This document shows, in pieces, positions 18,114-60,177 of a stretch of 64,000 bases of DNA. Within the stretch, counting starts at the first letter, position 1; the number at the start of each line of letters is the position of its first letter. The notes under the pieces were generated by a model. The model did no database searches. It saw only the letters and a program-made list of their open reading frames with translations, and was not told the origin of the DNA. Origin of the DNA: an uncultured Thermotogae bacterium (GTDB taxonomy: Bacteria > Bipolaricaulota > Bipolaricaulia > CAYUCE01); assembly GCA_964443275.1 (NCBI GenBank), contig CAYUCE010000002.1, forward strand, positions 358 through 64,357, written 5' to 3'. A program made the position numbers and the translations under genes.

Positions 18114-21100
18114 ATGCTTAAAACTATAGACCGATACATCTTAAAAGAATTGACTTTCCCTTTCTTTGTAGCTGTGGGAGGATTTATCATTTTTATAACC
18201 CTTAATTTAATCTTGCAGCTATCTGATTTTATGATAGATAGAAGCATCTCCCTTCTGGTCATGGTTAAGCTGCTTTTTTATAAACTGCCCGAATTGTTGG
18301 TGCTTTCCCTTCCGGTAGCCGTTTTATTTTCGGTCTTTTTGGCACTGGGGCGTTTGGTACACGACCGGGAGATAGTGGCCATGCAATCGGCAGGTTTTTC
18401 ATGTAAGCGAATAGTGGTGCCCATACTTATAATCGGCCTTTCAGTGGGATTTTTCGATCTTTTTCTGAATGATCGAGTTGCCCCCTGGGGTAACCATCAA
18501 TATCAGATGCTAATTCGTCAAATAATCTATAGAGGAGAAGCCCCAAGCATAAGGGATAATACATTCTTCAAAGGGGCAGAGAACCGCTTCTTTTACGTAA
18601 GCCACTACGATTCCCAGAAGAAAATTATGGAAAACATCCTGATTTATGACAAGACCGAAGGATTCGAGTTAGAGGAGTTATCAGGTACCTATCCCAAGGT
18701 AATAACTGCAAAAAAGGCGGTGTGGAGAGGCACCACCTGGCACCTTCAAGATGGGGTTATTCACAAATATGATGACAACGGCGATCTGGTCTATAAAGCT
18801 CAGTTTGAAACCATGAAAATAGAGATCGGGAGGGATTTACAAAATCTGCTCACTCAGGAGCGGACCCCCCAGGGAATGAGCCTTTCGGAGTTGGGAGAGA
18901 AGATAAATACCATGCGCCAAAGCGGTTTAAATTACGACAGCTTAGTAGTAGAATATCATTCCAAGATATCAATTCCATTTACGGCTTTTATTTTTGCCTT
19001 ATTCGGGGCTCCCTTAAGCCTTATGTTCGGAAAGCGAAGCAGAGGAGTGGGGATAGTGATCGCTTTACTTCTGGTGGGAACCTTCCAAGGGATACTGCTT
19101 TGGTCACAGACCCTGGGAAGGAGGGGGATCATAAACCCCGTATTGAGCGCCTGGATCCCTAACCTGATATTTGGACTGGTGGGCATTGTATTATTTCTTA
19201 TGATGGATAAGGTCCATATAGACAACATCTGGCAAAGGATAAAAAGAACTATCACTTTAGTGGTCATTTTTCTTATATTATCTATCGGCTTTTCGAACTA
19301 CGCGTGTGCCGAGGAGAAGAGTGAATTTATCCCCCCTATAGATCTTCAAGCAGATTCTATAACCATCTCTCAAAATGAGAGGGAAGTTGAAGGGGCTGGA
19401 CACGTAAATATAACTTACGGCCAAAATCTCATCCAGGCCGACCGAATAACCATGTCCGAAGTCAAAAAAGAGGTTTGGTATATAAAGGCAGAAGGAAATG
19501 TCAGTTTTAAAAACGAAGATTTTACTACCCAAGCTGACCGAATGGAATCCATCTTGGAGTTAAAGGAAGACGGGAACTTAACTTCAAAAGAAATAACTCT
19601 ATCCGACTTTACCGCCGATCTACGCAAAAAAACCAAAACTTCAGAGTTTAAAGTTACCGGCCAGCAAGCAAAGTTTGCAATCGATGAACAAATCAGGCGG
19701 GTAGAAATTAGGGGCGGGGCAAGTTTCCAGTTAGAAAACGTCCACATATCAGCCGACCGAATCATTATCGGCAAGGATGAAAATGGTCAAAAGGAAGCAA
19801 AAAATAACCAAGTTAAAGAAGCGGATTTATGGAAATTAACGGCGGCTGGAAACGTTTTACTTAAAGAAAGGGAAAGGACTACCCGGGCCGGGCAGCTTAC
19901 TACCCACTTTAGATGGCTCAAGGACCAGGAAATAAAGATTTTGGCTTATGAGCTGGCCAATTTTGAGGGAAAATCTTCTTTTATAAATTCCAACCAACAA
20001 GAGCAAACTATACGTTACCAAGGTGAGAAAGCCCGGCTTTCCTACGATAAAAAAGGGGGACTTGAATTAATCGACGTAGGAATAGGGGATTTCACTACCT
20101 GCATAGATTGTGCTTCCTGTATCGAGAAGGAGGCATATTCTATGAAAGCCAATCGGGTACTCATTTACTCCGATTATCTGTTGGTGGCTTTTGATATAAC
20201 CACCCGAATTTTCGGTCTCCCTATTTTCTGGTACCCCATGTACCTGGCGCCCTTACAAGAGACCAGGGAAAGCCCGCTCTTTCCTGAATTTGGAAGAAGT
20301 GAAACAAGGGGATGGTTTGCCAACTGGAAGTTTCCCTTTTTCTTAACCGATGAAAGGCGAACCTACGGCTATTTGCTTGTTGACTACTTTAACCGCTTCA
20401 ACGAGCTGGGTACCGGAGTGGAGCTACATTATACGGTGGGAGAACATGCGGGTAAAATTCATGCCTACCGGCTGGCTGGAAGAAGGGGCGAATACTTGGA
20501 TTTATACGCAACTTATGGTTTGCCAATCACCGAGCACATAAATCTTAATCTGAGAGCCGATTTGAGAGCCGGTTTGTATGAGGAATTAACCAATCGCAAA
20601 CTTCAATCCTACCTGGAATTGATCGGAAGTTACGACCAATGGAGTTGGAATTTCAAACTTTCCAGAGCCCACCATACAGAAGACCCGGAAAGTGAGGAAG
20701 AAAACTATCAAATATTGGAGAGGGTACCCGAAATCATGGTAAAGAAAAACCCAACCTCCGATAACCTATTTCGCTATTCCTACGGGATCAATTGGGGAAA
20801 GTATAGGGAAAAAGACTTTACCCGCCCGGATTTTTTAACCGCCAGCCGCTTTTACGGGTGGTTAGACCTCGATCTAAAACAAATTTCTCTTGGTGAGGAC
20901 CTAATTAAGTTCAACTTACCCTCTATGATTAGATTCTCACTTTACGGAAAAGACAGGCCCCGTTACGTCTTGGGGACATTTCCCACCCTGACTTTGAACC
21001 CTTTACAGAACCTCACGGTAAGAGCAGATTACAAGTTTCAGGCATCGGTTGGGGACACCCCTTTTGAATTCGATAAGTTAACCAAAAAGAACAAGACCTT

Positions 21101-21680
21101 ACTTAACCTCGTGGCTAACGGGGATTGGCTGCGAGTTGATTTACATTCTGGTTTTGATTTTAAAGAAGAACAGTTTGACCCGGTCAAACTCTCCCTATCT
21201 ACCAAATTATTGTTTAACAATTTAATCACCGCCTTTCAGTACGACCTAAATGAGGGCCGGCTGATAGAGGTGGGAATAACCAATTCAATTAACTTAGGTA
21301 ATTTTGCCCTTCAGGCAAACACCGGATACTCATTTGCGGATCAAAAATTCGAAGATTTAGTGATTAAATCCAAGATCGGAAAAGCGTTTGATATAGGATT
21401 GATCTATGACTTAAATCGAGGTTACTTGACCAAGACTAACATGGAAATTGGGTTTAATATGGGTGAGGACTGGAGTATATCGTTAAACGGTGAGTACGAT
21501 TTTGCCCATAGAGAATGGGATAAATTTCAGTACGGTCTGGTAAGAAAGTTCTGCAACTGCTGGCAAGTAGGTATCTTTGCAGATATGGATCGTATATGGC
21601 TCACAGCCGAGATAAGCGCTTTCCCCACGGCTAAAGTTAAATATTCACCTACTGACGAAAGACTATCTTTCGGTGAGTAA
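18114..21680 (+). CDS. LptF/LptG-family permease fused in one 1188-aa ORF to an LptD/OstA-like protein (OstA-N repeats plus C-terminal barrel-like region)
   Basis: Residues 1-370 start with LKTIDRYILKEL and have six TM helices plus a periplasmic insert, the LptF/G hallmark. A seventh hydrophobic helix follows and resembles a signal peptide (KRTITLVVIFLILSIGFSNYACA). After it come OstA-like repeats (ADSITISQNEREVEGAGHVNITYG...). The C-terminal about 550 aa is Tyr/Gly-rich, with FGLPIFWYPMYLAP and a CNCWQVGIF motif resembling the LptD C-terminal Cys pair. There is no stop codon between the two parts. Confidence 0.55.
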   Translation: MLKTIDRYILKELTFPFFVAVGGFIIFITLNLILQLSDFMIDRSISLLVMVKLLFYKLPELLVLSLPVAVLFSVFLALGRLVHDREIVAMQSAGFSCKRIVVPILIIGLSVGFFDLFLNDRVAPWGNHQYQMLIRQIIYRGEAPSIRDNTFFKGAENRFFYVSHYDSQKKIMENILIYDKTEGFELEELSGTYPKVITAKKAVWRGTTWHLQDGVIHKYDDNGDLVYKAQFETMKIEIGRDLQNLLTQERTPQGMSLSELGEKINTMRQSGLNYDSLVVEYHSKISIPFTAFIFALFGAPLSLMFGKRSRGVGIVIALLLVGTFQGILLWSQTLGRRGIINPVLSAWIPNLIFGLVGIVLFLMMDKVHIDNIWQRIKRTITLVVIFLILSIGFSNYACAEEKSEFIPPIDLQADSITISQNEREVEGAGHVNITYGQNLIQADRITMSEVKKEVWYIKAEGNVSFKNEDFTTQADRMESILELKEDGNLTSKEITLSDFTADLRKKTKTSEFKVTGQQAKFAIDEQIRRVEIRGGASFQLENVHISADRIIIGKDENGQKEAKNNQVKEADLWKLTAAGNVLLKERERTTRAGQLTTHFRWLKDQEIKILAYELANFEGKSSFINSNQQEQTIRYQGEKARLSYDKKGGLELIDVGIGDFTTCIDCASCIEKEAYSMKANRVLIYSDYLLVAFDITTRIFGLPIFWYPMYLAPLQETRESPLFPEFGRSETRGWFANWKFPFFLTDERRTYGYLLVDYFNRFNELGTGVELHYTVGEHAGKIHAYRLAGRRGEYLDLYATYGLPITEHINLNLRADLRAGLYEELTNRKLQSYLELIGSYDQWSWNFKLSRAHHTEDPESEEENYQILERVPEIMVKKNPTSDNLFRYSYGINWGKYREKDFTRPDFLTASRFYGWLDLDLKQISLGEDLIKFNLPSMIRFSLYGKDRPRYVLGTFPTLTLNPLQNLTVRADYKFQASVGDTPFEFDKLTKKNKTLLNLVANGDWLRVDLHSGFDFKEEQFDPVKLSLSTKLLFNNLITAFQYDLNEGRLIEVGITNSINLGNFALQANTGYSFADQKFEDLVIKSKIGKAFDIGLIYDLNRGYLTKTNMEIGFNMGEDWSISLNGEYDFAHREWDKFQYGLVRKFCNCWQVGIFADMDRIWLTAEISAFPTAKVKYSPTDERLSFGE

Positions 21681-35405: not shown

Positions 35406-36722
35406 GTGACTAACTTTATTAACTTAAAAAACGAACTTCCCGGAAAGAAGTCACAAGAAATCGCCCAAAAGAGAAAGATGTATGTGACTCAAGCCGTGGG
35501 CAAACAATCGCTTTGCCCCGGTTATATTGCCAGTGGTGATGGCGCTTTAGTTACTGACGTAGACGGAAATACCTTTATCGATTTTACCGGGGGTTGGGGA
35601 TGTTTAATTGTGGGTCATACTCCAACCAGAGTAGTGAAAGCAATTAAAGAACAAGCTGAGAAATATCTTCACACGGACTTTTCAGCAGTTCCGTACGAAC
35701 CCTACGTCGAGCTTGCCGAGCGATTGGTTAAGCTGGCCCCCGGCGATTGGCCCAAAAAGGCGGCCTTTTTTAATAGTGGAGCAGAAGCGGTGGAAAATGC
35801 GGTAAAGATATCACGTGCTTACACCGGAAGGAAAGCAGTGATAGTATTCGAAAATGCCTTTCACGGCCGGACACTTCTAACTATGACCATGACCCACAAA
35901 GCCAAACCCTATAAGTACAAGTTTGGCCCATTTGCCTCCGATATCTACCGGCTACCCTATCCCAACTCCTATCGTTCTGATGGAAAATCAAAAGACTGGG
36001 AGCGGGAACTTACTTCTCTGGTCAATCCTGAAGAGGTGGCTTGCTTAGTAATAGAGCCCATACAAGGTGAAGGGGGGTTTTTAGTTCCTCCGGATGGATT
36101 CTTAAAACAATTACGGGATCTGTGTGACAAGTACGGTATCTTGTTTGTAGCAGATGAGATTCAAACCGGTATGGGCAGGACGGGGAAGATGTTTGCTATC
36201 CAACATTGGGACATCGAACCGGACATTATTACAGTAGCCAAATCGCTGGCTGCCGGGCTTCCTCTATCCGGGGTAATCGCCAAAAAAGAAGTCATCGATT
36301 CTCTTATCGAGGGAGCCATCGGAGGTACATATTGTGGAAATCCACTTGCCTGCCGGGCAGCCATCGAGGTCTTAAACCTTATCCAGGAAGAAAATCTCCT
36401 TTCACGAGCCGAAAAAATCGGCAAACAAATAAAGGAAAGATTTACTTCGATGAAGGAAAAGTACGAAATCATAGGCCATATACGGGGTATAGGAGCCATG
36501 GTGGGAATGGAATTTGTTAAAGATAGAGATACTAAGGAGCCTGCTTCAGAGGCTACTTCCCAGATCGTTAAAGATTGTGTTTCACATGGACTGCTTGTTC
36601 CCAGCTGCGGAATTTACAATAACGTAATCAGGTTGCTAGTGCCTTTGGTAATTACCGACTCCCAGCTAAGCGAGGGCCGTGACGTATTGGAAGATGCAGT
36701 CGCTAGAGTTGCAGGAATCTAA
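35406..36722 (+). CDS. Class-III PLP-dependent aminotransferase (GabT/ornithine/putrescine aminotransferase-like), copy A
   Basis: 438 aa. The Lys-PLP region is DEIQTGMGRTGKMFA. The central about 1.1 kb is near-identical to copy B at 48598..49917. Confidence 0.85.
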   Translation: MTNFINLKNELPGKKSQEIAQKRKMYVTQAVGKQSLCPGYIASGDGALVTDVDGNTFIDFTGGWGCLIVGHTPTRVVKAIKEQAEKYLHTDFSAVPYEPYVELAERLVKLAPGDWPKKAAFFNSGAEAVENAVKISRAYTGRKAVIVFENAFHGRTLLTMTMTHKAKPYKYKFGPFASDIYRLPYPNSYRSDGKSKDWERELTSLVNPEEVACLVIEPIQGEGGFLVPPDGFLKQLRDLCDKYGILFVADEIQTGMGRTGKMFAIQHWDIEPDIITVAKSLAAGLPLSGVIAKKEVIDSLIEGAIGGTYCGNPLACRAAIEVLNLIQEENLLSRAEKIGKQIKERFTSMKEKYEIIGHIRGIGAMVGMEFVKDRDTKEPASEATSQIVKDCVSHGLLVPSCGIYNNVIRLLVPLVITDSQLSEGRDVLEDAVARVAGI

Positions 36723-42957: not shown

Positions 42958-44421
42958 ATGTATGGAGAAAGAAACTTCTTATCCTCTGAGCGGCCCTATC
43001 TCCGTGTTCTCTCAGAAAAACAGTTAGAGAATCTCCATTTTGCTTCTCTGCGCGTGCTGGAGAGAACGGGGATGATTTTTAACTCTTCTCAAGCTGTTGA
43101 CCTGCTTCTTTCGGCCGGTGGCCGAAGAGTTGAAGGAAATAGAATTTCGATTCCTTCTCATTTAATTGATAAATCTCTCAAGAGCGCGCCTAAGCAAATA
43201 AGGATTAGTGATCGAGAGGGTGATTCCATGATGCTCCTATCGGGCCACAATGTCTATTACGGTACTGGGTCCGATCTTCCTAGTGTCATTGATCCATATT
43301 CCGGTGAGAAGCGTGCCTCATTAGCAAAAGATGTGGGTAACTTCGCCAGGGTCTGTGACTATTTACCAAACATTGATTTTGTGATGTCTATGGCACTGGC
43401 TTCCGATCACCCTGTGGAAGTAGCCGATTTATATCATTTTTTACAGATGGTTAGCAATACGACGCTGCCCATACTCTTTACTGCTTCTAATCGTGAAAGT
43501 TTAGAATACATTTACCAAATGTGTCTGGCCATAAGGGGTAGCGAACAAGCATTGACAAAAGAGCCCTTTATAATTCACTATGCCGAACCTAGCAGTCCAC
43601 TACAGCATAGTAAAGATGCTGTTGACAAACTTCTTTTCTGCGCGAAGCACGGAATTCCGGTCACTTATCCATCCGGAACTTCTCTCGGAGTTACCGCCCC
43701 AGTCACTATCGCCGGTGCTATGGTTATGGCAAACGCAGAGTTTCTTGGTGGACTCGTTTTAAGTCAACTAACACAGGAAGGGGCTCCCATCATTTACGGT
43801 GGTGGGAATTCAGCGATGGATATGCGCACCATGGCGTATCTCTATGCAGCCCCCGAAAATTGGCTTAATGGAATGATAGTCCGGGAACTATCCTCCTACT
43901 ATAGGTTACCATGTTTTGGGGAAGGTGGCTGCGGTGATGCTAAGACCTTCGACCAACAAGCAAGTAGTGAGGCCACAAGCACATTGTTAGTTACTAGTCT
44001 GATTGGTACAAACCTTATACATGATGTGGGATACATCGAGTCAGGCAAGACAGGTTCCTATGGAATGCTTTTGCTATCTGATGACGTTATTGGACAAATT
44101 AAACGTTTTCTCCGTGGGGTCGAGGTATCGAATGAAACCCTAGCAGTAGAAGTATTAGACAGAGTTGGACCAGGAGGTAATTTTCTCACCGATCAACATA
44201 CTCTAAACCATTTTAAGGATTCAATTTATAATCCAAATTATTTTGATCGCCAAACCTTTAGTCAGTGGGTAAAACAAGGCAAAAAAGCACTTGGTCAAGT
44301 ATTGAACGAGAAAGCTAGATGGATTTTGGAAAATCATGAACCTAAACCTTTACCAGAAGGAGTTAAGCAGAAGATAAATACCATCATTCAAAAAGCCGAG
44401 GAACAAAGGGAAAGAACGTAA
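42958..44421 (+). CDS. MttB-superfamily (trimethylamine/quaternary-amine:corrinoid methyltransferase-like) protein, non-pyrrolysine
   Basis: The N-terminus LSEKQLENLHFASLRVLERTGMIF matches the family start. The core GIPVTYPSGTSLGVTAPVTIAGAMVMANAEFLGGLVLSQLT...YGGGNS...DAK...VSNETLAVEVLDRVGPGGNFL aligns along MttB/MtgB. A Cys/Gly sits at the position of the UAG/Pyl residue of true MttB. No corrinoid protein or RamA-like activase is in the window. Confidence 0.7.
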   Translation: MYGERNFLSSERPYLRVLSEKQLENLHFASLRVLERTGMIFNSSQAVDLLLSAGGRRVEGNRISIPSHLIDKSLKSAPKQIRISDREGDSMMLLSGHNVYYGTGSDLPSVIDPYSGEKRASLAKDVGNFARVCDYLPNIDFVMSMALASDHPVEVADLYHFLQMVSNTTLPILFTASNRESLEYIYQMCLAIRGSEQALTKEPFIIHYAEPSSPLQHSKDAVDKLLFCAKHGIPVTYPSGTSLGVTAPVTIAGAMVMANAEFLGGLVLSQLTQEGAPIIYGGGNSAMDMRTMAYLYAAPENWLNGMIVRELSSYYRLPCFGEGGCGDAKTFDQQASSEATSTLLVTSLIGTNLIHDVGYIESGKTGSYGMLLLSDDVIGQIKRFLRGVEVSNETLAVEVLDRVGPGGNFLTDQHTLNHFKDSIYNPNYFDRQTFSQWVKQGKKALGQVLNEKARWILENHEPKPLPEGVKQKINTIIQKAEEQRERT

Positions 44422-48597: not shown

Positions 48598-49917
48598 ATG
48601 TCTACTCGACCTAGTTTTATCTCTTTTAGCACCTGTTCCCCTGGCCCAAAGTCAAAGGAAATTGCCAAGAAGAGAGAGAGGTTTGTAACTAATGCATTGG
48701 GCAGGCAATCTCTTTGTCCCGGTTATATTGCCAGTGGTGATGGCGCTTTGGTCACCGACATAGACGGAAATACCTTTATCGATTTTACCGGGGGTTGGGG
48801 ATGTTTAATCGTCGGTCATACTCCAACCAGAGTAGTGAAAGCAATTAAAGAACAAGCTGAGAAATATCTTCACACGGACTTTTCAGCAGTTCCGTACGAA
48901 CCCTACGTCGAGCTTGCCGAGCGATTGGTTAAGCTGGCCCCCGGCGATTGGCCCAAAAAGGCGGCCTTTTTTAATAGTGGAGCAGAAGCGGTGGAAAATG
49001 CGGTAAAGATATCACGTGCTTACACCGGAAGGAAAGCAGTGATAGTATTCGAAAATGCCTTTCACGGCCGGACACTTCTAACTATGACCATGACCCACAA
49101 AGCCAAACCCTATAAGTACAAGTTTGGCCCATTTGCCTCCGATATCTACCGGCTACCCTATCCCAACTCCTATCGTTCTGATGGAAAATCAAAAGACTGG
49201 GAGCGGGAACTTACTTCTCTGGTCAATCCTGAAGAGGTGGCTTGCTTAGTAATAGAGCCCATACAAGGTGAAGGGGGGTTTTTAGTTCCTCCGGATGGAT
49301 TCTTAAAACAATTACGGGATCTGTGTGACAAGTACGGTATCTTGTTTGTAGCAGATGAGATTCAAACCGGTATGGGCAGGACGGGGAAGATGTTTGCTAT
49401 CCAACATTGGGACATCGAACCGGACATTATTACAGTAGCCAAATCGCTGGCTGCCGGGCTTCCTCTATCCGGGGTAATCGCCAAAAAAGAAGTCATCGAT
49501 TCTCTTATCGAGGGAGCCATCGGAGGTACATATTGTGGAAATCCACTTGCCTGCCGGGCAGCCATCGAGGTCTTAAACCTTATCCAGGAAGAAAATCTCC
49601 TTTCACGAGCCGAAAAAATCGGCAAACAAATAAAGGAAAGATTTACTTCGATGAAGGAAAAGTACGAAATCATAGGCCATATACGGGGTATAGGAGCCAT
49701 GGTGGGAATGGAATTTGTTAAAGATAGAGATACTAAGGAGCCTGCTTCAGAGGCTACTTCCCAGATCGTTAAAGATTGTGTTTCACATGGACTGCTTGTT
49801 CCCAGCTGCGGAATTTACAATAACGTAATCAGATTACTGGTGCCTTTGGTAATTACCGACTCCCAGCTAAGCGAGGGCTTGGACGTGTTAGAGGAGGCGA
49901 TCTCCAGTATTGCTTAA
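48598..49917 (+). CDS. Class-III PLP-dependent aminotransferase, copy B
   Basis: 439 aa. Identical to copy A between QSLCPGYIASGDG and VITDSQLSEG. The termini are divergent. Confidence 0.85.
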   Translation: MSTRPSFISFSTCSPGPKSKEIAKKRERFVTNALGRQSLCPGYIASGDGALVTDIDGNTFIDFTGGWGCLIVGHTPTRVVKAIKEQAEKYLHTDFSAVPYEPYVELAERLVKLAPGDWPKKAAFFNSGAEAVENAVKISRAYTGRKAVIVFENAFHGRTLLTMTMTHKAKPYKYKFGPFASDIYRLPYPNSYRSDGKSKDWERELTSLVNPEEVACLVIEPIQGEGGFLVPPDGFLKQLRDLCDKYGILFVADEIQTGMGRTGKMFAIQHWDIEPDIITVAKSLAAGLPLSGVIAKKEVIDSLIEGAIGGTYCGNPLACRAAIEVLNLIQEENLLSRAEKIGKQIKERFTSMKEKYEIIGHIRGIGAMVGMEFVKDRDTKEPASEATSQIVKDCVSHGLLVPSCGIYNNVIRLLVPLVITDSQLSEGLDVLEEAISSIA

Positions 49918-51017: not shown

Positions 51018-51728
51018 CTAACCGGCAGTGGGAATTTTAAAACTATCCTCTGAAATTTTCCCATCCTCCAGATATATGACCCGTTTTACCCTTTCTAAAA
51101 GTCGGGTATCATGGGTAGCAAATAGAAAGGTCACCTGTTGGTTTTCATTTAATTTTCGCATCAAATCGATCAAATTAAGGCTGGCCTCAGTATCCAGATT
51201 GGCAGTTGGTTCATCGGCCAATACTAAAGATGGGCCAGCGGCTACCGCTCTAGCTACAGCCACCCGTTGCTGTTGACCCCCGGAGAGCTGATTGGGACGG
51301 CGATCTGCTAATTGGTCCACATCCAGGGCTTCGAGAACGGACATGGCCCTATCTTTGCGCTTGGATTTTGCCTGCCCTTGAAGTTCCATGACAAACTCGG
51401 CATTCTCCAAGGCGGTGAGTACTGGAAGCAGATTATATGCCTGAAATACAAAACCCAACTCGTACAAGCGAAATTCCGCCAGTTGACCTTTAGACAGTTG
51501 GTTTAGCTCTTTTCCGTTTACCCAGATCTTTCCCCCCGTAGGCTGAAGCAAACCGCCAACAATATGAAGCAGGGTGGATTTACCCGATCCGGACGGTCCG
51601 GCCACGCTCGCATACTCCCCTTTTTCTATCCTTAGATCAATCCCCCGTAAGGCCGGAGTCTCTACCGAATCCACCTTGTAGGTCATCTCTAACTTCTCAC
51701 AACGTACAATTTTTTTTCGATCTTCCAT
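51018..51728 (-). CDS. ABC transporter ATP-binding protein (LolD/MacB-type)
   Basis: Walker A GPSGSGKST, signature LSGGQQQRVA and Walker B LVLADEPT. Length is 236 aa. Confidence 0.9.
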   Translation of the reverse strand: MEDRKKIVRCEKLEMTYKVDSVETPALRGIDLRIEKGEYASVAGPSGSGKSTLLHIVGGLLQPTGGKIWVNGKELNQLSKGQLAEFRLYELGFVFQAYNLLPVLTALENAEFVMELQGQAKSKRKDRAMSVLEALDVDQLADRRPNQLSGGQQQRVAVARAVAAGPSLVLADEPTANLDTEASLNLIDLMRKLNENQQVTFLFATHDTRLLERVKRVIYLEDGKISEDSFKIPTAG

Positions 51729-51928
51729 ATTAACTCCTTATTTATCAGTTAATGGTCTATTTCTAAACTTCACATTTAATTTTAAGTTAGACTTTGTAGA
51801 GGAAGGCTTCAGCCTTCCATGTTAATTGATTTCGATACAAAAAAACATCATGGAACTCTAAAACTTTGCGCTACCCACAAACAACCGGAATATATTCTCT
51901 CCAATTGCAATTTTTTTTGTAGCGGAAA

Positions 51929-52006
51929 CTCTACTATGCTGCTTCGCAGCTCTCTGCTTCGCAAGCTTCGCAGAAGCGTAGAAGAGGTCGTAGAAGCGAA
52001 GAAGAG
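51929..52006. repeat. Left copy of an inverted repeat of about 79 bp (cttcgc/gcgaag-rich) flanking the Lol-like cassette
   Basis: ctctactatgctgcttcgcagctctctgcttcgcaagcttcgcagaagcgtagaagaggtcgtagaagcgaagaagag equals the reverse complement of 56138-56216, apart from one indel and a few mismatches. Confidence 0.6.
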
Positions 52007-52048
52007 CCTTTAGGTTTTCATCTTATCTGGGATATCCTCCATATTTGT

Positions 52049-53302
52049 TTACTCATACCGCATGGCCTCCACCGGATCTAGCCCGGCCGCCTGCCTGGCT
52101 GGCCACCAGGCGGCCACCAAAGCAATAAACATCATGGTCACCGCCGAAATCACCATGTCAAAGGTAGTTATTCGTAAGTACATAACGGATTGAAAGCCTA
52201 CTGCTGACAGCTCTTCTTGATATTCTTGATATACTGGTAGTGCCAGTCCTTGACTTCCCCACAGTACCAGTCCAACCCCAATTCCAGTGCCCACTGCAGC
52301 CCCAATTATAGTTAGGAGTAAAGCTTCTGTGCTGATCATACCCATGATACGGCGCTTGGACGCTCCCAAAGCGCTAACTACCCCCAATTCACGGATTCTC
52401 TCCAACACCGATAAGTATAAGGTATTTAACACTACTAAGCCGGCTAGAAGATAGAAAATAGCAGCAAAAACAGCATACAGTGGTCTTAAAATTCGTAAAA
52501 TCCCTGCTCTCTGGGGGGCCAATTCCTTCCAAGTCTCCACCAGGAATTCTTCCCCCAGTTTACTTTGCAGCCGGTTTGCTACCTGGTCGATCTTAGCGCT
52601 GTCCCAGGGACCGGTTACCCCTTTCACCATGGCCACCGCAGTAGTGGCAGCAGTGGAGGATTTTATAAGCTGCCGGGCATCTTTTAAGGTTATCTGTAGT
52701 AGCGATCGGTTAAGCTCCGAAGAAGGGGCATCCAACTCCCCTACAATTTTAGGCACTAAGACACTTGATCCTATCTGGGGATGGGAAACTAAAAGTATAA
52801 TTGATTGTCCCGACTCTACTTTTAGATTTTCAAGCAGTAACTTTCCGGCCACCGCTTTGTTACTATCATCAGCTTTTAGATACCGTCCCTCTTTTACCCA
52901 ATTATCGACGGGGCTAATCTTTGTGGATTCTTCCGGTTCCACCCCTTGAATCATTATGGGTTTTGATCTATCTTGGTTAGCTGCCAGAGCTGGAAGCTCA
53001 AGCTTTAGAGTAAACCATTCAATATCCGGATCTCTAGATAGGGCATTGGTAATGGGCCCGGTATCCCACATTATGGGATAAGCTTCACCTGTGGTCTTGG
53101 ATCGATAATCGGCAGGGTGAATTTGAATATGTCCAGTTTCTAGTTTCACTGTATTATCAAACAGGCTTCTTTCAAACGCTCCGGAAAAACCCCACATTAA
53201 ATCTAGTATAAGCACCGGAATGAGAACCGCCATCAGGGTAAGAATACTCCTGCGTTTGTTTCTCAAAAGATTTCTAAAAGCTAGTCTCAAGAGGAGCCGC
53301 AA
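52049..53302 (-). CDS. ABC transporter permease, FtsX/MacB/LolE-like
   Basis: 417 aa with an N-terminal TM helix, a large periplasmic domain and a C-terminal FtsX four-helix bundle. Confidence 0.8.
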   Translation of the reverse strand: MRLLLRLAFRNLLRNKRRSILTLMAVLIPVLILDLMWGFSGAFERSLFDNTVKLETGHIQIHPADYRSKTTGEAYPIMWDTGPITNALSRDPDIEWFTLKLELPALAANQDRSKPIMIQGVEPEESTKISPVDNWVKEGRYLKADDSNKAVAGKLLLENLKVESGQSIILLVSHPQIGSSVLVPKIVGELDAPSSELNRSLLQITLKDARQLIKSSTAATTAVAMVKGVTGPWDSAKIDQVANRLQSKLGEEFLVETWKELAPQRAGILRILRPLYAVFAAIFYLLAGLVVLNTLYLSVLERIRELGVVSALGASKRRIMGMISTEALLLTIIGAAVGTGIGVGLVLWGSQGLALPVYQEYQEELSAVGFQSVMYLRITTFDMVISAVTMMFIALVAAWWPARQAAGLDPVEAMRYE

Positions 53303-54132
53303 AACTCATCTCCTTTCACTAAACAGTCCAGGGTAAACCTTTCCGGCGGTATATCGATTCCAAAATCATAGCTTTCTATCTCTTCTATCGTATAGCGGCC
53401 TTCCCGCTTAAGGTCGGTAACTTCCGTTTTTAAAGGGATAACTCTTTTTTCATCTACCCGAGTGAAATCAGAAAATTCCGCCTCCCGGATTAAGGAGTCC
53501 CTTTGATCGAAGTAGTGGATAGTCAAAACAGAACAATCAGATCCTCTGATATCGATCTCCAATTTTCCAAATACCACTGGGGCTTTTGGCTTAGGGGTTA
53601 ACTTAAGTCGGGAGATTTTAATTTCTTCGTTCTCATCTCCCTTTTTTGTTTTAGTACCCAACAATTGAACATCGTAATTTTCGTTCAGGGTACCCCTGTA
53701 GACATCTTCCAAATACAAATCCGAACCTAAAAATTCCGAGGTCATGGTGGTTTGAGGTAGCGAAATAGCTTGTCCGGCGGCTGGTTTAAAATACCAAAGC
53801 TTTTCATCTTTCAATAAGTATCCGGACCCCGCTTCATCTTCCGGAGCCAGAATCCGGATAAAAGCGGGGTCTCCTCCTTCCTCGCTCCATACTTCTAGCC
53901 TATAGTTTTGCGTATAATCAGGTCGATAAATCTGAATGGAAACAACGCTGTAAAACGCAGTTTCTACCCAGTTTGCCCGGGCACAATCCAGAAGTTCCAT
54001 GGCTTTATTATCTGATGAAGATTGGGAGTAACTTATTCCAGTCAACGAAACTGCCAAAATACATATAAAAACAAACGTCTTAAACTTTAAATCGTAATTT
54101 CTAAACATGATGCATAGCCTCCGTTGGTTCAA
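53287..54132 (-). CDS. LolA-like outer-membrane lipoprotein-sorting family protein (periplasmic)
   Basis: Signal peptide, then a beta-rich body resembling the LolA-like family found between FtsX permeases. Length is 281 aa. Confidence 0.45.
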   Translation of the reverse strand: MNQRRLCIMFRNYDLKFKTFVFICILAVSLTGISYSQSSSDNKAMELLDCARANWVETAFYSVVSIQIYRPDYTQNYRLEVWSEEGGDPAFIRILAPEDEAGSGYLLKDEKLWYFKPAAGQAISLPQTTMTSEFLGSDLYLEDVYRGTLNENYDVQLLGTKTKKGDENEEIKISRLKLTPKPKAPVVFGKLEIDIRGSDCSVLTIHYFDQRDSLIREAEFSDFTRVDEKRVIPLKTEVTDLKREGRYTIEEIESYDFGIDIPPERFTLDCLVKGDEFCGSS

Positions 54133-55315
54133 TTTTTGCGGTTCTTCTAGCCGGGTACCAAGCGGCCATAATTCCAGCTAATATCACCACTGAAAGGCTG
54201 TATAGCCAATACCAGCCTGAGGCTTCTGGATATACCACGGTGGGAATGCCAAAACCTGCGGTAAGTTCGGAAAAAGCCCCAAAATCTAGTCCTACCTGAG
54301 AAAGCCAGTAATTAAAAACATATCCCACCCCTCCCCCCAAAGCGAACCCAAAGCCGGAGGATATTATAGATTCAGCAATCACCATCCGGGCTAGTTTCTT
54401 AGGCTTCATCCCCAAAGCAATCATTACTCCAAATTCCCTGGTCCTTTCTAAAACTGTAAACATGACCGTATTGGCTACTCCAAATCCTGCTAAGATAGCT
54501 AATAACAACATTATGGGGATCATTTCGATACGCTCGACAACCATCATCTCTCTTAGCAAAGGGTTTAAATCCATAAAGGAGGAGATTATCAATTTATCGT
54601 TTAATCTTTCTTTTAGCTCAGTTGCAACCCGGTTAGGGACTGAGCCATCTTTAACTGAGATTATTACTTCAGTGGCTCCGTTTATTCCGCTCAGTTTTTG
54701 GGCATCCTCCAGCGAAATATAAATCACGCTCTGATTTAATTCAGCTAAGCTAGTATGGTATAATCCCACTACATTAAAAGCCAGGGATTTCGGGCCCTCT
54801 TTTCCCTGCAGGTCGATCACCACTCGTTCACCAACTCGTGCATCCAGATCCTGGGCTATTTTCTGACTAAGGAGGATCTCACCAATTGACTTTATAAACT
54901 CTCCCTTCACCACCGCCTGGTCAATAATAGTAACCTCTAATTCCTGGATAGGATCAACCCCCCTTAGTTGCATACCCGAAGTCCCGTAAGCAGTGCTTAA
55001 AAGTCCCTCTAACTCCATTCTAGGAGCCCATCCTTCAATGGCACCAAATTCTTTCAAATTATCCTCTATAGTTTTTATTTGATCGCTGGATAAGGCATTA
55101 TCCAAGCTGGGGTCCTCTAGATAACCTGATTTATGAATTTGCAAATCACCGGTATTAATATTTTTCTGGGAATTAACAGTAGTGGTCAGAAAGCCTTCCA
55201 CCAACCCCCAAAGAACCACAATAGCCCAGGTTCCCACAGCTACGATAGCTATCATTAGCAGAGTACGCTTTTTATTCCTCCATAAATTTCGCCAAGCCAA
55301 ACGAAGTGTAGTCAT
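54101..55315 (-). CDS. ABC transporter permease, FtsX/MacB/LolC-like
   Basis: 404 aa with the same architecture as 52049..53302. Confidence 0.8.
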   Translation of the reverse strand: MTTLRLAWRNLWRNKKRTLLMIAIVAVGTWAIVVLWGLVEGFLTTTVNSQKNINTGDLQIHKSGYLEDPSLDNALSSDQIKTIEDNLKEFGAIEGWAPRMELEGLLSTAYGTSGMQLRGVDPIQELEVTIIDQAVVKGEFIKSIGEILLSQKIAQDLDARVGERVVIDLQGKEGPKSLAFNVVGLYHTSLAELNQSVIYISLEDAQKLSGINGATEVIISVKDGSVPNRVATELKERLNDKLIISSFMDLNPLLREMMVVERIEMIPIMLLLAILAGFGVANTVMFTVLERTREFGVMIALGMKPKKLARMVIAESIISSGFGFALGGGVGYVFNYWLSQVGLDFGAFSELTAGFGIPTVVYPEASGWYWLYSLSVVILAGIMAAWYPARRTAKIEPTEAMHHV

Positions 55316-55365
55316 TTGTTATTCCATCCTTTCATGCTCCCGTTATTCACGGACTTCTCTTTCTA

Positions 55366-55983
55366 TCATTGTTTTATTCCGTTTTTTATTACGTATAGCA
55401 TTTCATCTACCATTCGCATGAATTCCTTTTCTCTTGGTGCTTCCTTATCTTTAAAAAGATAATTTATGATAGACAAATTAAATGAAATAAGCATCTGGGT
55501 TACTACATCTTTATCTATCTCGGGATTTAAATTACCACTATCGATACCTCTTTGCAATAATTCCTTCAAAAATTCTTCGCTTCTCGGTAAGGCATCATCG
55601 AATATTTCACCTTTTAGATCAACATCACCTGCATTTAAAATTCTTTGTCCTATGAGAGCAAGCTGGGGATTTTTTCGAGCAAACTCAATTGCAGCTAAAT
55701 AAAGATCTCTTAAAGTTTGGAAAAAATCAAAACCGGCCCTTTCCCGTATTACCTCGCTCATAACTTGAAGTTTCTTCTTCCCGGCTATATTCAAGATATG
55801 CTTAAATAGATCCTTTTTATCCTGAAAATACTGATAAAAACTTCCCTTGGGAATATCGGCCTTTTGGACAATTCTGTTTACAGTTGCCTGGTGGAAAGGA
55901 TGATTCACAAACTCATCTATAGCCGCATCCAGTATTCTCTGTCGTTTCTCTTCTGCTAGGTTAAAAAACGTATCCGTAGGCAT
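55366..55983 (-). CDS. TetR/AcrR-family transcriptional regulator
   Basis: N-terminal HTH RILDAAIDEFVNHPFHQATVNRIVQKADIPKGSFYQYF. The likely start is the ATG at 55983 (MPTDTFF); the track uses a GTG at 55995. Confidence 0.85.
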   Translation of the reverse strand: MPTDTFFNLAEEKRQRILDAAIDEFVNHPFHQATVNRIVQKADIPKGSFYQYFQDKKDLFKHILNIAGKKKLQVMSEVIRERAGFDFFQTLRDLYLAAIEFARKNPQLALIGQRILNAGDVDLKGEIFDDALPRSEEFLKELLQRGIDSGNLNPEIDKDVVTQMLISFNLSIINYLFKDKEAPREKEFMRMVDEMLYVIKNGIKQ

Positions 55984-55992
55984 TTTGCATAT

Positions 55993-56030
55993 CACATGAC
56001 TAAGTAGTCATGTGACCATTGAGTCACATT
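55993..56030. promoter_or_regulatory. Two overlapping operator-like palindromes upstream of tetR
   Basis: CACATGACTA-ag-TAGTCATGTG (55993-56014) and ATGTGAC-cattga-GTCACAT (56010-56029) lie immediately upstream of the tetR start. Confidence 0.4.
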
Positions 56031-56137
56031 ATATACCAAAGTCGGGGGGTTGTCAAGGCTCGCTTGATTTGAATTCTACCTCAATTCTGATGTAGCCTGT
56101 TTTCGTATTTGAATTTCTCGTACTTCGCTTCTTCGAA

Positions 56138-56216
56138 CTCTTCTCCGCTTCTACGACCTCTTCTACGCTTCTGCGAAGCTTGCGAAGCAGAGAGCTACTG
56201 AAGTAGCATAGTAGAG
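56138..56216. repeat. Right copy of the inverted repeat of about 79 bp
   Basis: Reverse complement of 51929-52006 at about 94 percent identity. It is intergenic between tetR and the 56277 gene. Confidence 0.6.
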
Positions 56217-56276
56217 GCTACGTAGTAGCGTAGAAGAGTATGCTTTGATTAAGACTAAGTAGAGGAGGAATATTAT

Positions 56277-58943
56277 ATGAAAAGAAACTTATTTATTATC
56301 GGTTTTCTCGGCTTGCTTATTTTTATTTCCCTTTCTATAAACGTGTTTGGATGGTCGGATTGGAAGACTATTAAGACCGAACATTTCACCATTTTATATA
56401 AATCCGAATATGAGAACCAGGCCTGGGAAGTCCTAAAAACTATGGAACATTACCGGCCCCAAGTGGAAAAGCTTACCGGTAATAAAGCCAAACACCTACC
56501 CATGGTGATCGAAGATGTGGGAACTTTGACCAACGGTATGGCTAATCCAATTTTCTACAACATTCATCTTTTTACCTATCCTCCCTCCGGCTCTTTGGCT
56601 TTTACCCAAAACTGGTGGTCGCTGGTGGGGGTTCACGAATACACTCACCTGCTACATTTAACTAAAGCCAGCGGAATTCCAAACCTTTTGTCCTCCCTTT
56701 TTGGCAATATCTATGCCCCTAATTTATGGTCTCCGGGATGGGCGGTTGAGGGCATAACCGTTTACAGCGAGTCACAAATTTCTCCCTATCAGGGAAGGCT
56801 AAACGATGGGTACTTTGATGCCTATATGGGGGCAAGAGTGGCTGCTAATCGCTTCCCCTCCCTTCTAACCGCCACCTACGGGCCGCTGGAGTTTCCCTCT
56901 GGTTCAATCTACCTTTACGGCGGGAAATTCTTTAACTATTTAGCTAGGACTTATGGAGAAGATAAATTCGCCCAATTTTTTGAAAATTACGGTTCCTCGA
57001 CCCTCTCCCTTTACTCATCGCTTCTTCCCTTCATAGGCATTGATCAATCAGCCAAAAAAGTCTACGGGAAAGCATTCCCTCAGTTGTGGAGGGAGTGGGG
57101 AAAATACGAATCTGATAGGTTCAAAGACTTTCGCCTTGAAGGTGAGCGAATAACTGATCACGGCTGGTACGTAGAGAATCCAGCAATTTACGGAAACAAA
57201 ATATATTATCAAAGACAATATCCGGTAAAAACCGGCCCGTTTAATCAATTTGATTTCAGCAAAATTGTGGCTAAAGACCTAACCAGCGGCGAAGAGCGGA
57301 CTGTGGTTTCTACCACTTCCTTTTTTACCACCCCAATGCGGTTTCAGGAAGATAAGCTTTATTACGGAATTGGTGAAATCAAACCCGGTTATGCCAATGC
57401 TACTTTAAACACCTTTGGTTATTACAGCCTAATTTATCAAAAAGACTTATCGACCGGGGAAGAGGAAGTGCTCTTTGAGGACGAACTGCGTGCATTTGAG
57501 GTAACGGGGGACGGGAATATCCTCTATTCGAAAGATTTAAGAGATTCTTTTGGCTCCCAGCTTTACTTATATCATCCGGACATTCAAGGTAAAGAGCTGC
57601 TTTTTAAAACCGACTATTTAATTAATGAGATAGTGGCAGATGGCGATAAAGTAATCGTCTCTGCCCGCAAGGATTGGGAGAATTTTAGCCTCTATAGGTT
57701 GGATCTAAATACGGGTGACTTTACGGCCCTGGTTAAGACTCCCTATGTAGAAAGTAATCTTTCCATGGGGGTGGACAAACTGTTTTACACCGCAAATTAT
57801 GAAGGCAAATATTCCCTGTATTGCTATGATTTTGCTGAAAGTAGGATTTATAGGCTTACCGAAGATGGATTTGCTGGCTCGCCCACCTATGATAAGGCTC
57901 ACGGGACCATCTATTTTATAGGACTTAACACGGATGGCCAGGACGTTTACGCAAAATCGGCGGAATTTATGGAATTTGACCTTCCTGACTTTGAGCCGTC
58001 CGCCCCTCCACAACTTGAACTTGCCAAAAGCGAAGTTAAGGAAGGCGGATACGGTGATAACCTGGCTACTTTGACCCCTAAAATCCGGTTTCCCATAGCC
58101 TCCTATGACGAAAACCCTTCGGCCGGGCTTCTTTTAGTGGGAGGGGATGCGGTGGGAGATTTTTTATATACAGGTATTCTTGGTTACGATTTTGAGGATA
58201 AGCAGCCTAAATTTTTTCTCAACCTAATAAACAATTTCTTTGCCCCCCTCAGCTCTAATATCAGCTTCGGTAATACTGAGGGGACGTTTTTAGCTAATGA
58301 GTGGTCTTTTAACTTGGATGTAAGCTATCCACTTAACAGAAGCCTAGTGACTGGAATGTCCGAACTTAGGTTAGGGACGACCCTTGATTTATCGGAAAAT
58401 TTCACAAGAAAAGTACTGACCCCATATATTTACCTGGGTTATCAATTTCTGGCTACCCGGGGATGGATAAATATCTCCACGCCCTTGGAACGAAAGTCCG
58501 TGGGAAGCAGTATGGACAGGACCGGCCTGTATGCCGAGCTTAGACTACGCCATTTCCTCCCTCCAGAAAAAGAAGTGTTCATAAACCTCAAGGATATTTA
58601 CGATCCGGATAGTCCCAATCCCGTATTTCCAAAAATTAGAGGCTACAGGGAAGCTTTGGACACCAGGTTTGGAGCTACTCTTTCTTTTGATTATTCCAGC
58701 CCCTTACTCCGTATAAGAGATGGTCTGTGGAATCCCAGCATATACTTTGAAGACTTATGTGGAAACTTTTTTATAGACGGTGCGTTTTCATTCCAAGGTC
58801 AGTGGCAGTTGTCAACCGGAATTGAGTTTCATATAGAAACTAGGATCTTAAACGCCATGTCCTCACTTCCTATAGATTTGGGAATTAGGCTAGTATTTAA
58901 TAAGGACGGCGGTTTTGGAATTGAACCTACTTTATATATTTAG
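56277..58943 (+). CDS. Large secreted protein with HExxH zinc-peptidase-like motif and beta-propeller (TolB/WD40-like) repeats
   Basis: Signal peptide, then WSLVGVHEYTHLLHL (HEYTH), repeated DG..(I/L)Y-type propeller blades, and a Tyr/Gly-rich C-terminus. Length is 888 aa. Confidence 0.4.
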   Translation: MKRNLFIIGFLGLLIFISLSINVFGWSDWKTIKTEHFTILYKSEYENQAWEVLKTMEHYRPQVEKLTGNKAKHLPMVIEDVGTLTNGMANPIFYNIHLFTYPPSGSLAFTQNWWSLVGVHEYTHLLHLTKASGIPNLLSSLFGNIYAPNLWSPGWAVEGITVYSESQISPYQGRLNDGYFDAYMGARVAANRFPSLLTATYGPLEFPSGSIYLYGGKFFNYLARTYGEDKFAQFFENYGSSTLSLYSSLLPFIGIDQSAKKVYGKAFPQLWREWGKYESDRFKDFRLEGERITDHGWYVENPAIYGNKIYYQRQYPVKTGPFNQFDFSKIVAKDLTSGEERTVVSTTSFFTTPMRFQEDKLYYGIGEIKPGYANATLNTFGYYSLIYQKDLSTGEEEVLFEDELRAFEVTGDGNILYSKDLRDSFGSQLYLYHPDIQGKELLFKTDYLINEIVADGDKVIVSARKDWENFSLYRLDLNTGDFTALVKTPYVESNLSMGVDKLFYTANYEGKYSLYCYDFAESRIYRLTEDGFAGSPTYDKAHGTIYFIGLNTDGQDVYAKSAEFMEFDLPDFEPSAPPQLELAKSEVKEGGYGDNLATLTPKIRFPIASYDENPSAGLLLVGGDAVGDFLYTGILGYDFEDKQPKFFLNLINNFFAPLSSNISFGNTEGTFLANEWSFNLDVSYPLNRSLVTGMSELRLGTTLDLSENFTRKVLTPYIYLGYQFLATRGWINISTPLERKSVGSSMDRTGLYAELRLRHFLPPEKEVFINLKDIYDPDSPNPVFPKIRGYREALDTRFGATLSFDYSSPLLRIRDGLWNPSIYFEDLCGNFFIDGAFSFQGQWQLSTGIEFHIETRILNAMSSLPIDLGIRLVFNKDGGFGIEPTLYI

Positions 58944-59511: not shown

Positions 59512-60177
59512 GTGAAGACCTATATCTTCCATGTCTCCCTTCCCGGTACCGGAAGGGTGTGGAGAAAGATCCAGATCCGAGCCGACCAAACCTTGGAGGA
59601 TCTACACTTTGCCATCCAGAAAGCCTATCATTGGGATGCCGATCACCTATACTCCTTTTTTATGAGCGGAAAAGTCTGGGACAAAAAGACCGAATACTGC
59701 CTACCAGAAGGTTACAGTCCATGGGGCAAGCCCATAGATGATATAGGAAGAGCGGAAGATAAAAGTGAAAAAGTGGAAAAACCAGATTCCCACCCACAAA
59801 GGCAGGTCGAGGGACTGGAAGCTAAAAGGAGAGAATGGATGGATAAATTTATGGGAATTGACCGAATCCAAGAGATCCAGGGAGTATCTGAAAAAATTGA
59901 AGAAAAAATTAGGGAGGAAATGGGATCGTTTCTAGGAAGAAAGCTTACCTCAACATGGCGCCGCCCCGTAGAGCCCGGTGATGTGCGCAAAACGAAGATA
60001 GAAGACCTAAAGCTTGAGAAAGGCGATGAGTTTATGTATCTTTTCGATTACGGTGATGACCATCGGTTCAAGGTAAGGGTTCACGGCATCCAAGAAGGTA
60101 GTGAAACCACAGATTATCCTACCGTGGTACAGTCAGTAGGAAAGGCCCCCAAGCAATATCCAGGTTGGGATGGATAA
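59512..60177 (+). CDS. Plasmid pRiA4b ORF-3-like family protein
   Basis: YIFHVSLPGTGRVWRKIQIRADQTLEDLHFAIQKAYHWDADHLYSFF, then a C-terminal YLFDYGDDHRFKVRVHGI. This matches the remembered PF07929 architecture. Confidence 0.5.
   Translation: MKTYIFHVSLPGTGRVWRKIQIRADQTLEDLHFAIQKAYHWDADHLYSFFMSGKVWDKKTEYCLPEGYSPWGKPIDDIGRAEDKSEKVEKPDSHPQRQVEGLEAKRREWMDKFMGIDRIQEIQGVSEKIEEKIREEMGSFLGRKLTSTWRRPVEPGDVRKTKIEDLKLEKGDEFMYLFDYGDDHRFKVRVHGIQEGSETTDYPTVVQSVGKAPKQYPGWDG

Follow-up and report, generated by a model that had tools for sequence, protein, structure and literature searches.

What does a LolCDE-like gene set do when it stands behind a repressor gene of its own in a bacterium related to a diderm lineage of Terrabacteria? 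The question is raised by five co-directional genes on the minus strand (51018-55995) of a 64-kb stretch of DNA from contig CAYUCE010000002.1, which was analysed as a whole and is called the window here (all positions follow its numbering). These genes encode a TetR-family repressor, two FtsX-type permeases (A and B), a LolA-like protein (the carrier), and an ATP-binding cassette (ABC) ATPase. The supply of lipids and any lipoproteins to the outer membrane of diderm Terrabacteria is an open question. Lol was described as "practically absent" from Terrabacteria, and the ancestral Bam and Lpt machineries of this group were argued to be without outer-membrane lipoprotein components (bioRxiv 10.1101/2021.05.31.446380). 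Bipolaricaulota and Fraserbacteria were reported to be diderm and to have a Thermotoga-like Omp-alpha/Omp-beta tether (bioRxiv 10.1101/2021.05.31.446380), and a closed Acetothermia genome was reported to be without lipopolysaccharide (LPS) genes (PMC6092417). The leucyl-tRNA synthetase encoded in the window has its best named matches in Bipolaricaulota/Acetothermia (54-60% identity), indicating that the source of the window is a divergent bacterium within, or related to, Bipolaricaulota.

We consider that the operon probably encodes an inducible type VII ABC extractor, Lol-like but not Lol, which hands its substrate over to a LolA-fold carrier under the control of TetR (probability about 0.55). 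The system belongs to a conserved family of its own, not yet characterised and outside the housekeeping LolCDE/LolA pathway. The PF17131 proteins, to which the carrier belongs and which are named LolA3 in Bacteroidota, have crystal structures and no known function; here, one of them is coupled to a LolCDE-like ABC transporter under a ligand-type repressor. Because this coupling occurs in a conserved operon, the question becomes testable: the carrier has a defined partner, the operator is defined as a putative site, and the ligand of the regulator should indicate the substrate.

The carrier, the permeases, and the ATPase

The carrier matched the Pfam family LolA_like (PF17131) with 111 bits against a cut-off of 30, while there was no match to the Pfam family of LolA proper (PF03548) or to any NCBIfam model. 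Its AlphaFold2 (AF2) model, based on an alignment of 25 homologues, had a mean predicted local distance difference test score (pLDDT) of 87.7, and is predicted to adopt the fold of the LolA/LolB superfamily, i.e., a beta-barrel that is left open and incomplete and whose hydrophobic groove is closed by helices. The best Foldseek matches in the PDB were 3buu (NE2245), 3bk5, 9tp6 (P. gingivalis LolA3), and 4z48 (DUF1329), with target template modelling (TM) scores of 0.82-0.85 and E ~1e-17, and the carrier was also related by phmmer to 3buu (E 3e-8) and 9tp6 (E 2e-7). Chains of LolA, LolB, RseB/MucB, and EPDR1 were retrieved with a Foldseek probability of 1.00 as well, but at much lower TM scores than the PF17131-type structures (about 0.35-0.6 for canonical LolA/LolB structures, with a root-mean-square deviation of 5.6-8 Å for LolA). 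The first-pass annotation had called this protein, read as 281 aa, LolA-like; the superfamily fold and the PF17131 assignment bear this out, while the protein is not LolA proper.

The alignment of the 25 homologues showed a signal peptide of the signal peptidase I type, without a lipobox, and four invariant cysteines, which together fit a secreted, possibly disulfide-bonded carrier. The carrier resembles the other PF17131 proteins (PGN0947/9tp6, Fjoh_0605, NE2245/3buu, and TP0789), which belong to the same Pfam family, include its best structural matches, are secreted, and share with it a larger beta-sheet than that of LolA. It differs from them in sequence (~22% identity), in the four invariant cysteines of the present branch, and in the linkage to FtsX permeases. 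The T. pallidum protein TP0789 differs further in that it is a predicted lipoprotein and adjoins the RND-type (resistance-nodulation-division) TP0790, judging from the locus numbering (PMC8407342). A literature search on PF17131 and on the pairing of LolA-like proteins with FtsX permeases found nothing relevant.

Permease A, with four transmembrane helices and a large periplasmic domain, matched the Pfam families MacB_PCD (56 bits) and FtsX (69 bits), and permease B, which is 27% identical to it, matched FtsX (67 bits). The FtsX matches of both permeases, the MacB_PCD domain of permease A, and an ATPase of the LolD/MacB/FtsE type place the system in the type VII ABC superfamily, whose marks also include three transmembrane helices in the C-terminal FtsX domain, one N-terminal transmembrane helix, and an extracytoplasmic domain. 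Its architecture is that of LolCDE, namely two permeases of four transmembrane helices each, with the periplasmic (Sabre/Porter) domain between the first and second helix, and an ATPase encoded by a separate gene. Both permeases aligned across nearly the full length of the NCBIfam lolCE model (TIGR02212), with 106 bits for permease A and 94 bits for permease B, while the equivalog cut-off is 362. The LolC- and LolE-specific models (PRK10814/PRK11146) scored 25-78 bits against cut-offs of 439-540, and the NCBIfam MacB model, with its cut-off of 966, gave 36-48 bits and covered the C-terminal FtsX portion only. Within NCBIfam, the MacB, DevC, ADOP, and FtsX models scored under the LolC/E models for the permeases and under the LolD model for the ATPase. 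Against PDB sequences, permease A was closest to LolF (73 bits), followed by LolE (62 bits) and MacB (38 bits), and permease B to LolE (51 bits), LolF (47 bits), and MacB (44 bits).

In a crude neighbour-joining tree, for which, as for the comparison with profile hidden Markov models (HMMs), the reference sequences were from E. coli only, permeases A and B formed two ancient paralogue clades and, joined by those of the distant variants described below, a single group, with E. coli MacB as the nearest outgroup or sister of the whole group. For the HMMs built from the two permease clades, the top-scoring E. coli protein was LolE (92 and 85 bits, in a single continuous alignment); MacB scored 75 and 58 bits in fragmented alignments, and LolC 62 and 68 bits. 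Because the tree and the HMM scores disagree, we claim neither a LolC/E nor a MacB affinity for the permeases, which on sequence comparison are best described as a separate clade within the type VII ABC superfamily.

The ATPase matched Pfam ABC_tran (117 bits) and the NCBIfam LolD model (TIGR02211; 230 bits against a cut-off of 308), and its Walker A, signature, Walker B, and H-loop motifs are all intact. Its nearest PDB relatives were MJ0796 (190 bits), LolD (185 bits), and YtrE (175 bits), with MacB and BceA as further near relatives; its identity is 40% with E. coli LolD and 36-37% with FtsE, YbbA, and the nucleotide-binding domain (NBD) of MacB. A "LolD motif" was considered as a marker of LolD and dropped, since in that stretch the ATPase is not nearer to LolD than to MacB or YbbA.

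The gene set had been described as a Lol-like lipoprotein-sorting system, and what remains of this description is the architecture: two paralogous permeases with large periplasmic domains, a LolD-like ATPase, a partner of the LolA superfamily, and LolC/E and LolD as the best-scoring curated models. Membership of LolCDE/LolA is not supported, in that neither the permeases nor the ATPase reached the equivalog cut-offs, the scores staying far under them, and that the partner belongs to PF17131 rather than PF03548. The organisation also differs. In E. coli, Lol is a constitutive housekeeping system and lolA is not linked to lolCDE, whereas here the permease genes flank the carrier gene and each overlaps it (permease A by 8 nt and permease B by 16 nt, as read from the sequence), which indicates translational coupling, and the operon is headed by tetR. 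Unlike the LolCDE of Gracilicutes, this system has a diderm Terrabacterium without LPS as its host lineage, and no LolB-like acceptor is known. Two related loci with a single permease only (L035 and L037) resemble the LolDF variant.

Conservation of the cassette and of its repressor

Searching species-representative genomes with the alignment of the carrier yielded 36 loci, and look-ups of exact proteins added seven. Nearly all of the 36 loci were found in metagenome-assembled genomes (MAGs) named Candidatus Bipolaricaulota, Acetothermia, or Fraserbacteria, or in bins auto-named "uncultured Thermotogae". The cassette, with overlapping genes, was recovered in ~40 loci, and tblastn showed the order permease A-carrier-permease B-ATPase in essentially every locus of sufficient length. 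More distant relatives (~27% identity) have the same four parts in the order carrier-permease-permease-ATPase, plus an extra gene of 426-431 aa after the ATPase gene (L041, 4841-6136; L042, 5790-7070). The products of this gene are 57% identical to each other, carry a signal peptide, end in ...RVYF or ...RIYF, and have no Pfam domain; each could possibly be an outer-membrane barrel. A profile search of 1.84 billion cluster representatives gave 2397 relatives at E <= 1e-3 and 39 at E <= 1e-30, so that the wider family is moderately large and the branch of the present cassette is small. Beyond the five genes, the neighbours conserved among the loci were limited to housekeeping synteny (a PHP-domain protein, NusB, and EF-P) and a weak, sub-threshold Asp23 match.

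The control region upstream of tetR contains TTGACA-17-TATAAT, the sole 12/12 match to the sigma-70 consensus between 50900 and 56400. Two overlapping perfect palindromes begin directly after its -10 box: ATGTGAC-N6-GTCACAT (7-bp arms, 6-nt spacer; 56010-56029) and TCACATGACTA-CT-TAGTCATGTGA (11-bp arms, 2-nt spacer; 55992-56015). The chance of finding a perfect palindrome with 11-bp arms within the 281-nt intergenic spacer was estimated at about 1e-4, and the position right after the -10 box is one where a repressor would block initiation. The operator palindromes reported by the first-pass annotation for this TetR gene are therefore real, while the binding of TetR to them is predicted from their position.

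The repressor matched Pfam TetR_N (49.9 bits, cut-off 24) and a TetR_C_5-like domain (30.1 bits, cut-off 27), and its N-terminal helix-turn-helix domain, together with the predicted operator at its own promoter, is as expected of the TetR family. Its nearest solved relative was 3nrg, an uncharacterised TetR protein (110 bits), with Bacillus-type FadR at ~44 bits, and its best NCBIfam match was FadR, with 63 bits, far under the cut-off of 200. The similarity to regulators of the AcrR/EnvR/QacR and FadR types is weak, and that to FadR, AcrR, and QacR would give only a hint toward fatty-acyl or amphiphilic ligands.

With phmmer, 21 loci belonging to the more distant sub-branch were seen to have a TetR-like open reading frame (ORF) directly upstream of, and co-directional with, permease A, and its identity was confirmed with Pfam in all four of the ORFs tested. 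Among L012-L040, the 90 nt ahead of the TetR genes carry TTGACA-17-TATACT and CTGTGAC, followed ~20 nt later by ATTCACAAGGA, and this control region is common to 18 MAGs despite strong divergence elsewhere. When the 18 alignable upstream regions were compared with the window, a common layout emerged: TTGACA, 17 nt, TATACT or TATAAT, (C)TGTGAC right behind it, and later (A/G)TTCACA(A/G)GGA. Judging from the upstream TetR-like ORFs and this shared promoter/operator layout, repressor control is a conserved trait of the cassette, and since the TGTGAC/GTCACA half-site stands at the same position after the -10 box in the window and in the related loci, it may well be ancestral to the cassette.

Arrangements comparable in outline are known from P. 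gingivalis and P. intermedia, where operons comprising a TetR gene, an MMPL exporter, and an "outer membrane lipoprotein-sorting protein" (in P. gingivalis also a porin-like gene) are induced 13- to >200-fold under iron or heme limitation; the P. gingivalis operon also responds to nitric oxide stress, and its TetR was reported to be autoregulatory (PMC10434189, PMC13096392, PMC11018363). As in the present operon, a TetR gene heads an operon for an inner-membrane exporter, here together with a protein so annotated; PG1179 may be a PF17131 protein and may be the crystallised LolA3. The P. gingivalis set (PG1175-PG1181) differs in its proton-driven MMPL/RND pump, its separate ABC ATPase genes, its porin-like gene, and its phylum, Bacteroidota. 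With the 21 upstream TetR-like ORFs, the 18 conserved control-region layouts, and these inducible analogues in Porphyromonas and Prevotella, the suggestion that the set is a conditional accessory exporter under a repressor has gained weight.

Mechanism and competing explanations

In the mechanism we favour, permeases A and B would form a heterodimeric type VII ABC transporter of the MacB/LolCDE fold, with a pair of ATPase subunits as its motor. Moved by ATP, the periplasmic domains would pull a substrate, hydrophobic or acylated, out of the cytoplasmic membrane at its outer face and pass it to the secreted PF17131 carrier, whose synthesis would keep pace with that of the permeases through the translational coupling of their genes. 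Held in the hydrophobic groove of the carrier, the substrate would then be moved into the periplasm, or across it, in a diderm envelope without LPS. TetR would bind the palindromes that begin at the -10 box and silence the operon as long as no ligand displaces it. We infer the direction of transport, the hand-over to the carrier, the repression by TetR, and that the substrate is hydrophobic; it may be a lipid, a fatty-acyl compound, a lipopeptide or lipoprotein, or a porphyrin-like molecule. In the structure of LolA with the periplasmic domain of LolC, the "Hook" and "Pad" of LolC dock LolA.

Several observations weigh against this mechanism. The model of permease A, based on a two-sequence alignment, had a pLDDT of 42.5 and is unusable for judging a contact between carrier and permease. 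The closest sub-branch (L001-L011, about ten loci) is without TetR, and the TetR of the window is similar to those of the related loci in the DNA-binding domain only. No experiment is on record for any member of the FtsX-type family, and the functional data on PF17131-type proteins are all negative: deletion of lolA3 in F. johnsoniae had no phenotype (PMC11885536), and P. gingivalis LolA3 binds LolB weakly, without the LolA Arg and LolB Leu hallmarks (PMC13103446). The ATPase gene is separated from permease B by a 320-nt spacer that bears a repeat, which could weaken its co-expression.

The explanation that competes best, although we consider it unlikely, is that of a MacB-type resistance or efflux pump for a toxic amphiphile (an antibiotic, an antimicrobial peptide, a detergent-like compound, or a free fatty acid), with the LolA-like protein as a mere accessory, e.g., a substrate trap or sensor. 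Efflux operons classically have a TetR gene directly upstream, and the weak AcrR/EnvR/QacR- and FadR-like similarity of the repressor, the MacB_PCD domain of permease A, and the sister position of E. coli MacB, the nearest E. coli sequence in the neighbour-joining tree, all agree with such a pump. So do the regulators of the drug-sensing type beside related cassettes, namely a MarR gene in place of TetR at one of the L001-L011 loci and a divergent PadR gene at one distant locus. However, MacAB-TolC, with which the present system shares the type VII ABC fold, has a homodimeric permease with fused NBDs, whereas the present permeases would form a heterodimer served by a separate ATPase. Neither a gene for a membrane-fusion protein (HlyD/MacA) nor one for a TolC-type duct (OEP) was found in the operon, elsewhere in the window, or in the seven related loci that were annotated. 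The HMM scores favour LolE over MacB, whose alignment is fragmented, and a hand-over step is suggested by the LolA-fold partner, which is strictly conserved and whose gene is translationally coupled. If the system exported a toxic amphiphile only, it would be an ordinary, though odd-looking, resistance pump.

Somewhat less probable than efflux is that the operon is the housekeeping Lol pathway of its lineage, releasing outer-membrane lipoproteins to a LolA-like chaperone and thereby filling the gap in diderm Terrabacteria, where canonical Lol was reported to be missing. The best curated families are LolC/E and LolD, the family HMMs favour E. coli LolE, and the partner has the LolA-superfamily fold. 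The cassette is conserved in Bipolaricaulota and Fraserbacteria, phyla described as diderm and as part of a clade in which Lol is "practically absent" (bioRxiv 10.1101/2021.05.31.446380); the leucyl-tRNA synthetase groups the window with Bipolaricaulota, and no second lolCDE-like gene was found within the 64 kb. On the other side, the scores lie far under the equivalog cut-offs, and the carrier is PF17131 rather than LolA, with a weak fold match to true LolA and LolB. A conserved repressor of the small-molecule type, with a putative operator over the promoter, would be atypical of an essential housekeeping pathway. Elsewhere, PF17131-type proteins go with MMPL/RND exporters and are stress-inducible (PG1179 being a presumed member), LolA3 does not pair with LolB (PMC13103446), and its deletion is without phenotype (PMC11885536). 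The argument that Bam and Lpt of Terrabacteria, in their ancestral form, have no outer-membrane lipoprotein components (bioRxiv 10.1101/2021.05.31.446380) also speaks against such a pathway.

A related idea, to which we give a slightly smaller chance again, is that the cassette is an independent Lol-like route of diderm Terrabacteria, moving acylated proteins or membrane lipids to the LPS-less outer membrane. If this is true, trafficking by an ABC transporter and a LolA-fold protein is not limited to Gracilicutes, and the orphan "LolA3" class gains a function.

An 82-nt inverted repeat (copies at ~51928-52009 and 56135-56217, ~97% identity), with a 59-nt core that is 98% complementary and a 17-nt extension, brackets exactly the 4.1 kb comprising the promoter, tetR, permease A, carrier, and permease B, and leaves the ATPase gene outside. 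Both copies have the same orientation relative to their downstream gene (the ATPase gene and a divergent 888-aa gene, respectively). With two copies only, it is the sole long repeat of such quality in the window, and it gave neither an Rfam family nor an exact match in the metagenome collection; its folding was unremarkable (z = 0.33). It may be a substrate for inversion, a regulatory element that was duplicated, or a small mobile repeat. On the minus strand of the 320-nt spacer, neither a sigma-70-like promoter nor a terminator-like site was found. That the local copy is rearranging or decaying, the repeats marking a recombination or insertion that uncoupled the ATPase so that the operon no longer is a working unit, is very improbable, in that the length of the spacer (the permease B and ATPase genes overlap or are <70 nt apart in the related loci), the exact bracketing, and the missing promoter-like site for the ATPase stand against five intact, full-length and still co-directional ORFs, an ATPase with complete motifs and a good AAGGAG ribosome-binding site, and a spacer without a terminator-like site.

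Gene layout and neighbouring genes

All five genes were present at the positions and in the order that the first-pass annotation had given for them, as confirmed by the ORF list and by the Pfam matches, which in gene order were TetR_N, MacB_PCD+FtsX, LolA_like (PF17131), FtsX, and ABC_tran. The reading frame of tetR starts at a GTG at 55995 in the ORF list and has an in-frame ATG at 55983, from which the repressor is numbered in Table 1. The carrier ORF (54132..53287) corresponds to 281 aa; the likely start is the ATG at 54108, which gives a protein of 273 aa, identical to the database protein P0001.

Table 1. Features of the operon and its surroundings, in window numbering.
Feature	Position	Strand	Basis or remark
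Sigma-70 promoter TTGACA-17 nt-TATAAT, upstream of tetR	56028..56056	-	Motif scan and alignment with 18 related loci
Putative TetR operator, two overlapping perfect palindromes	55992..56029		Palindrome search; TetR binding inferred
tetR, TetR-family repressor, 205 aa from ATG 55983	55366..55983	-	Pfam, PDB, and NCBIfam comparisons
Permease A, type VII ABC (MacB/LolC/E-like), 404 aa	54101..55315	-	Pfam, NCBIfam, PDB
LolA-superfamily carrier (PF17131 / TP_0789-like / LolA3 type), 273 aa	53287..54108	-	Pfam, AF2, Foldseek
Permease B, paralogous second type VII ABC membrane subunit, 417 aa	52049..53302	-	Pfam, NCBIfam, PDB
Spacer between permease B and ATPase genes, 320 nt	51729..52048		Holds repeat copy 1 and a hairpin (51801-51818)
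ABC ATPase (LolD/MacB-NBD/MJ0796-like), 236 aa	51018..51728	-	Pfam, NCBIfam, PDB, motifs
Repeat copy 2, between tetR promoter and divergent 888-aa gene	56135..56217		Inverted partner of 51928-52009

The 888-aa protein encoded divergently from tetR (56277-58943, plus strand) has a signal peptide, an HEYTH (HExxH) motif, and a strand-rich C-terminus; a weak Peptidase_MA_2 match (E = 0.022) and a faint TolB-propeller match were seen, with no Pfam domain above threshold. It was considered as a further part of the system. Because all the evidence was negative, i.e., no homologue in any related locus, no similarity to the barrel-like extra gene of the distant relatives, and no PDB relative, we treat this gene as a neighbour only. 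A PRiA4_ORF3-like gene (59512-60177, plus strand) lies just past it.

Elsewhere in the window, a 1188-aa protein (18114-21680, plus strand) contains an LptF/LptG permease domain in full (314 bits); behind it come a weak LptA/LptD_N-like domain and ~630 further residues without a Pfam match. It represents a fused permease/bridge protein of the Lpt type in a lineage reported to be without LPS (PMC6092417). An MttB-family methyltransferase gene (42958-44421, plus strand) is located within a cluster for a peptide/opine-type ABC transporter. Over 300 nt (35448-35747 and 48649-48948), the nucleotide identity between two genes for class-III aminotransferases (35406-36722 and 48598-49917) is 92%, which suggests a recent duplication or gene conversion.

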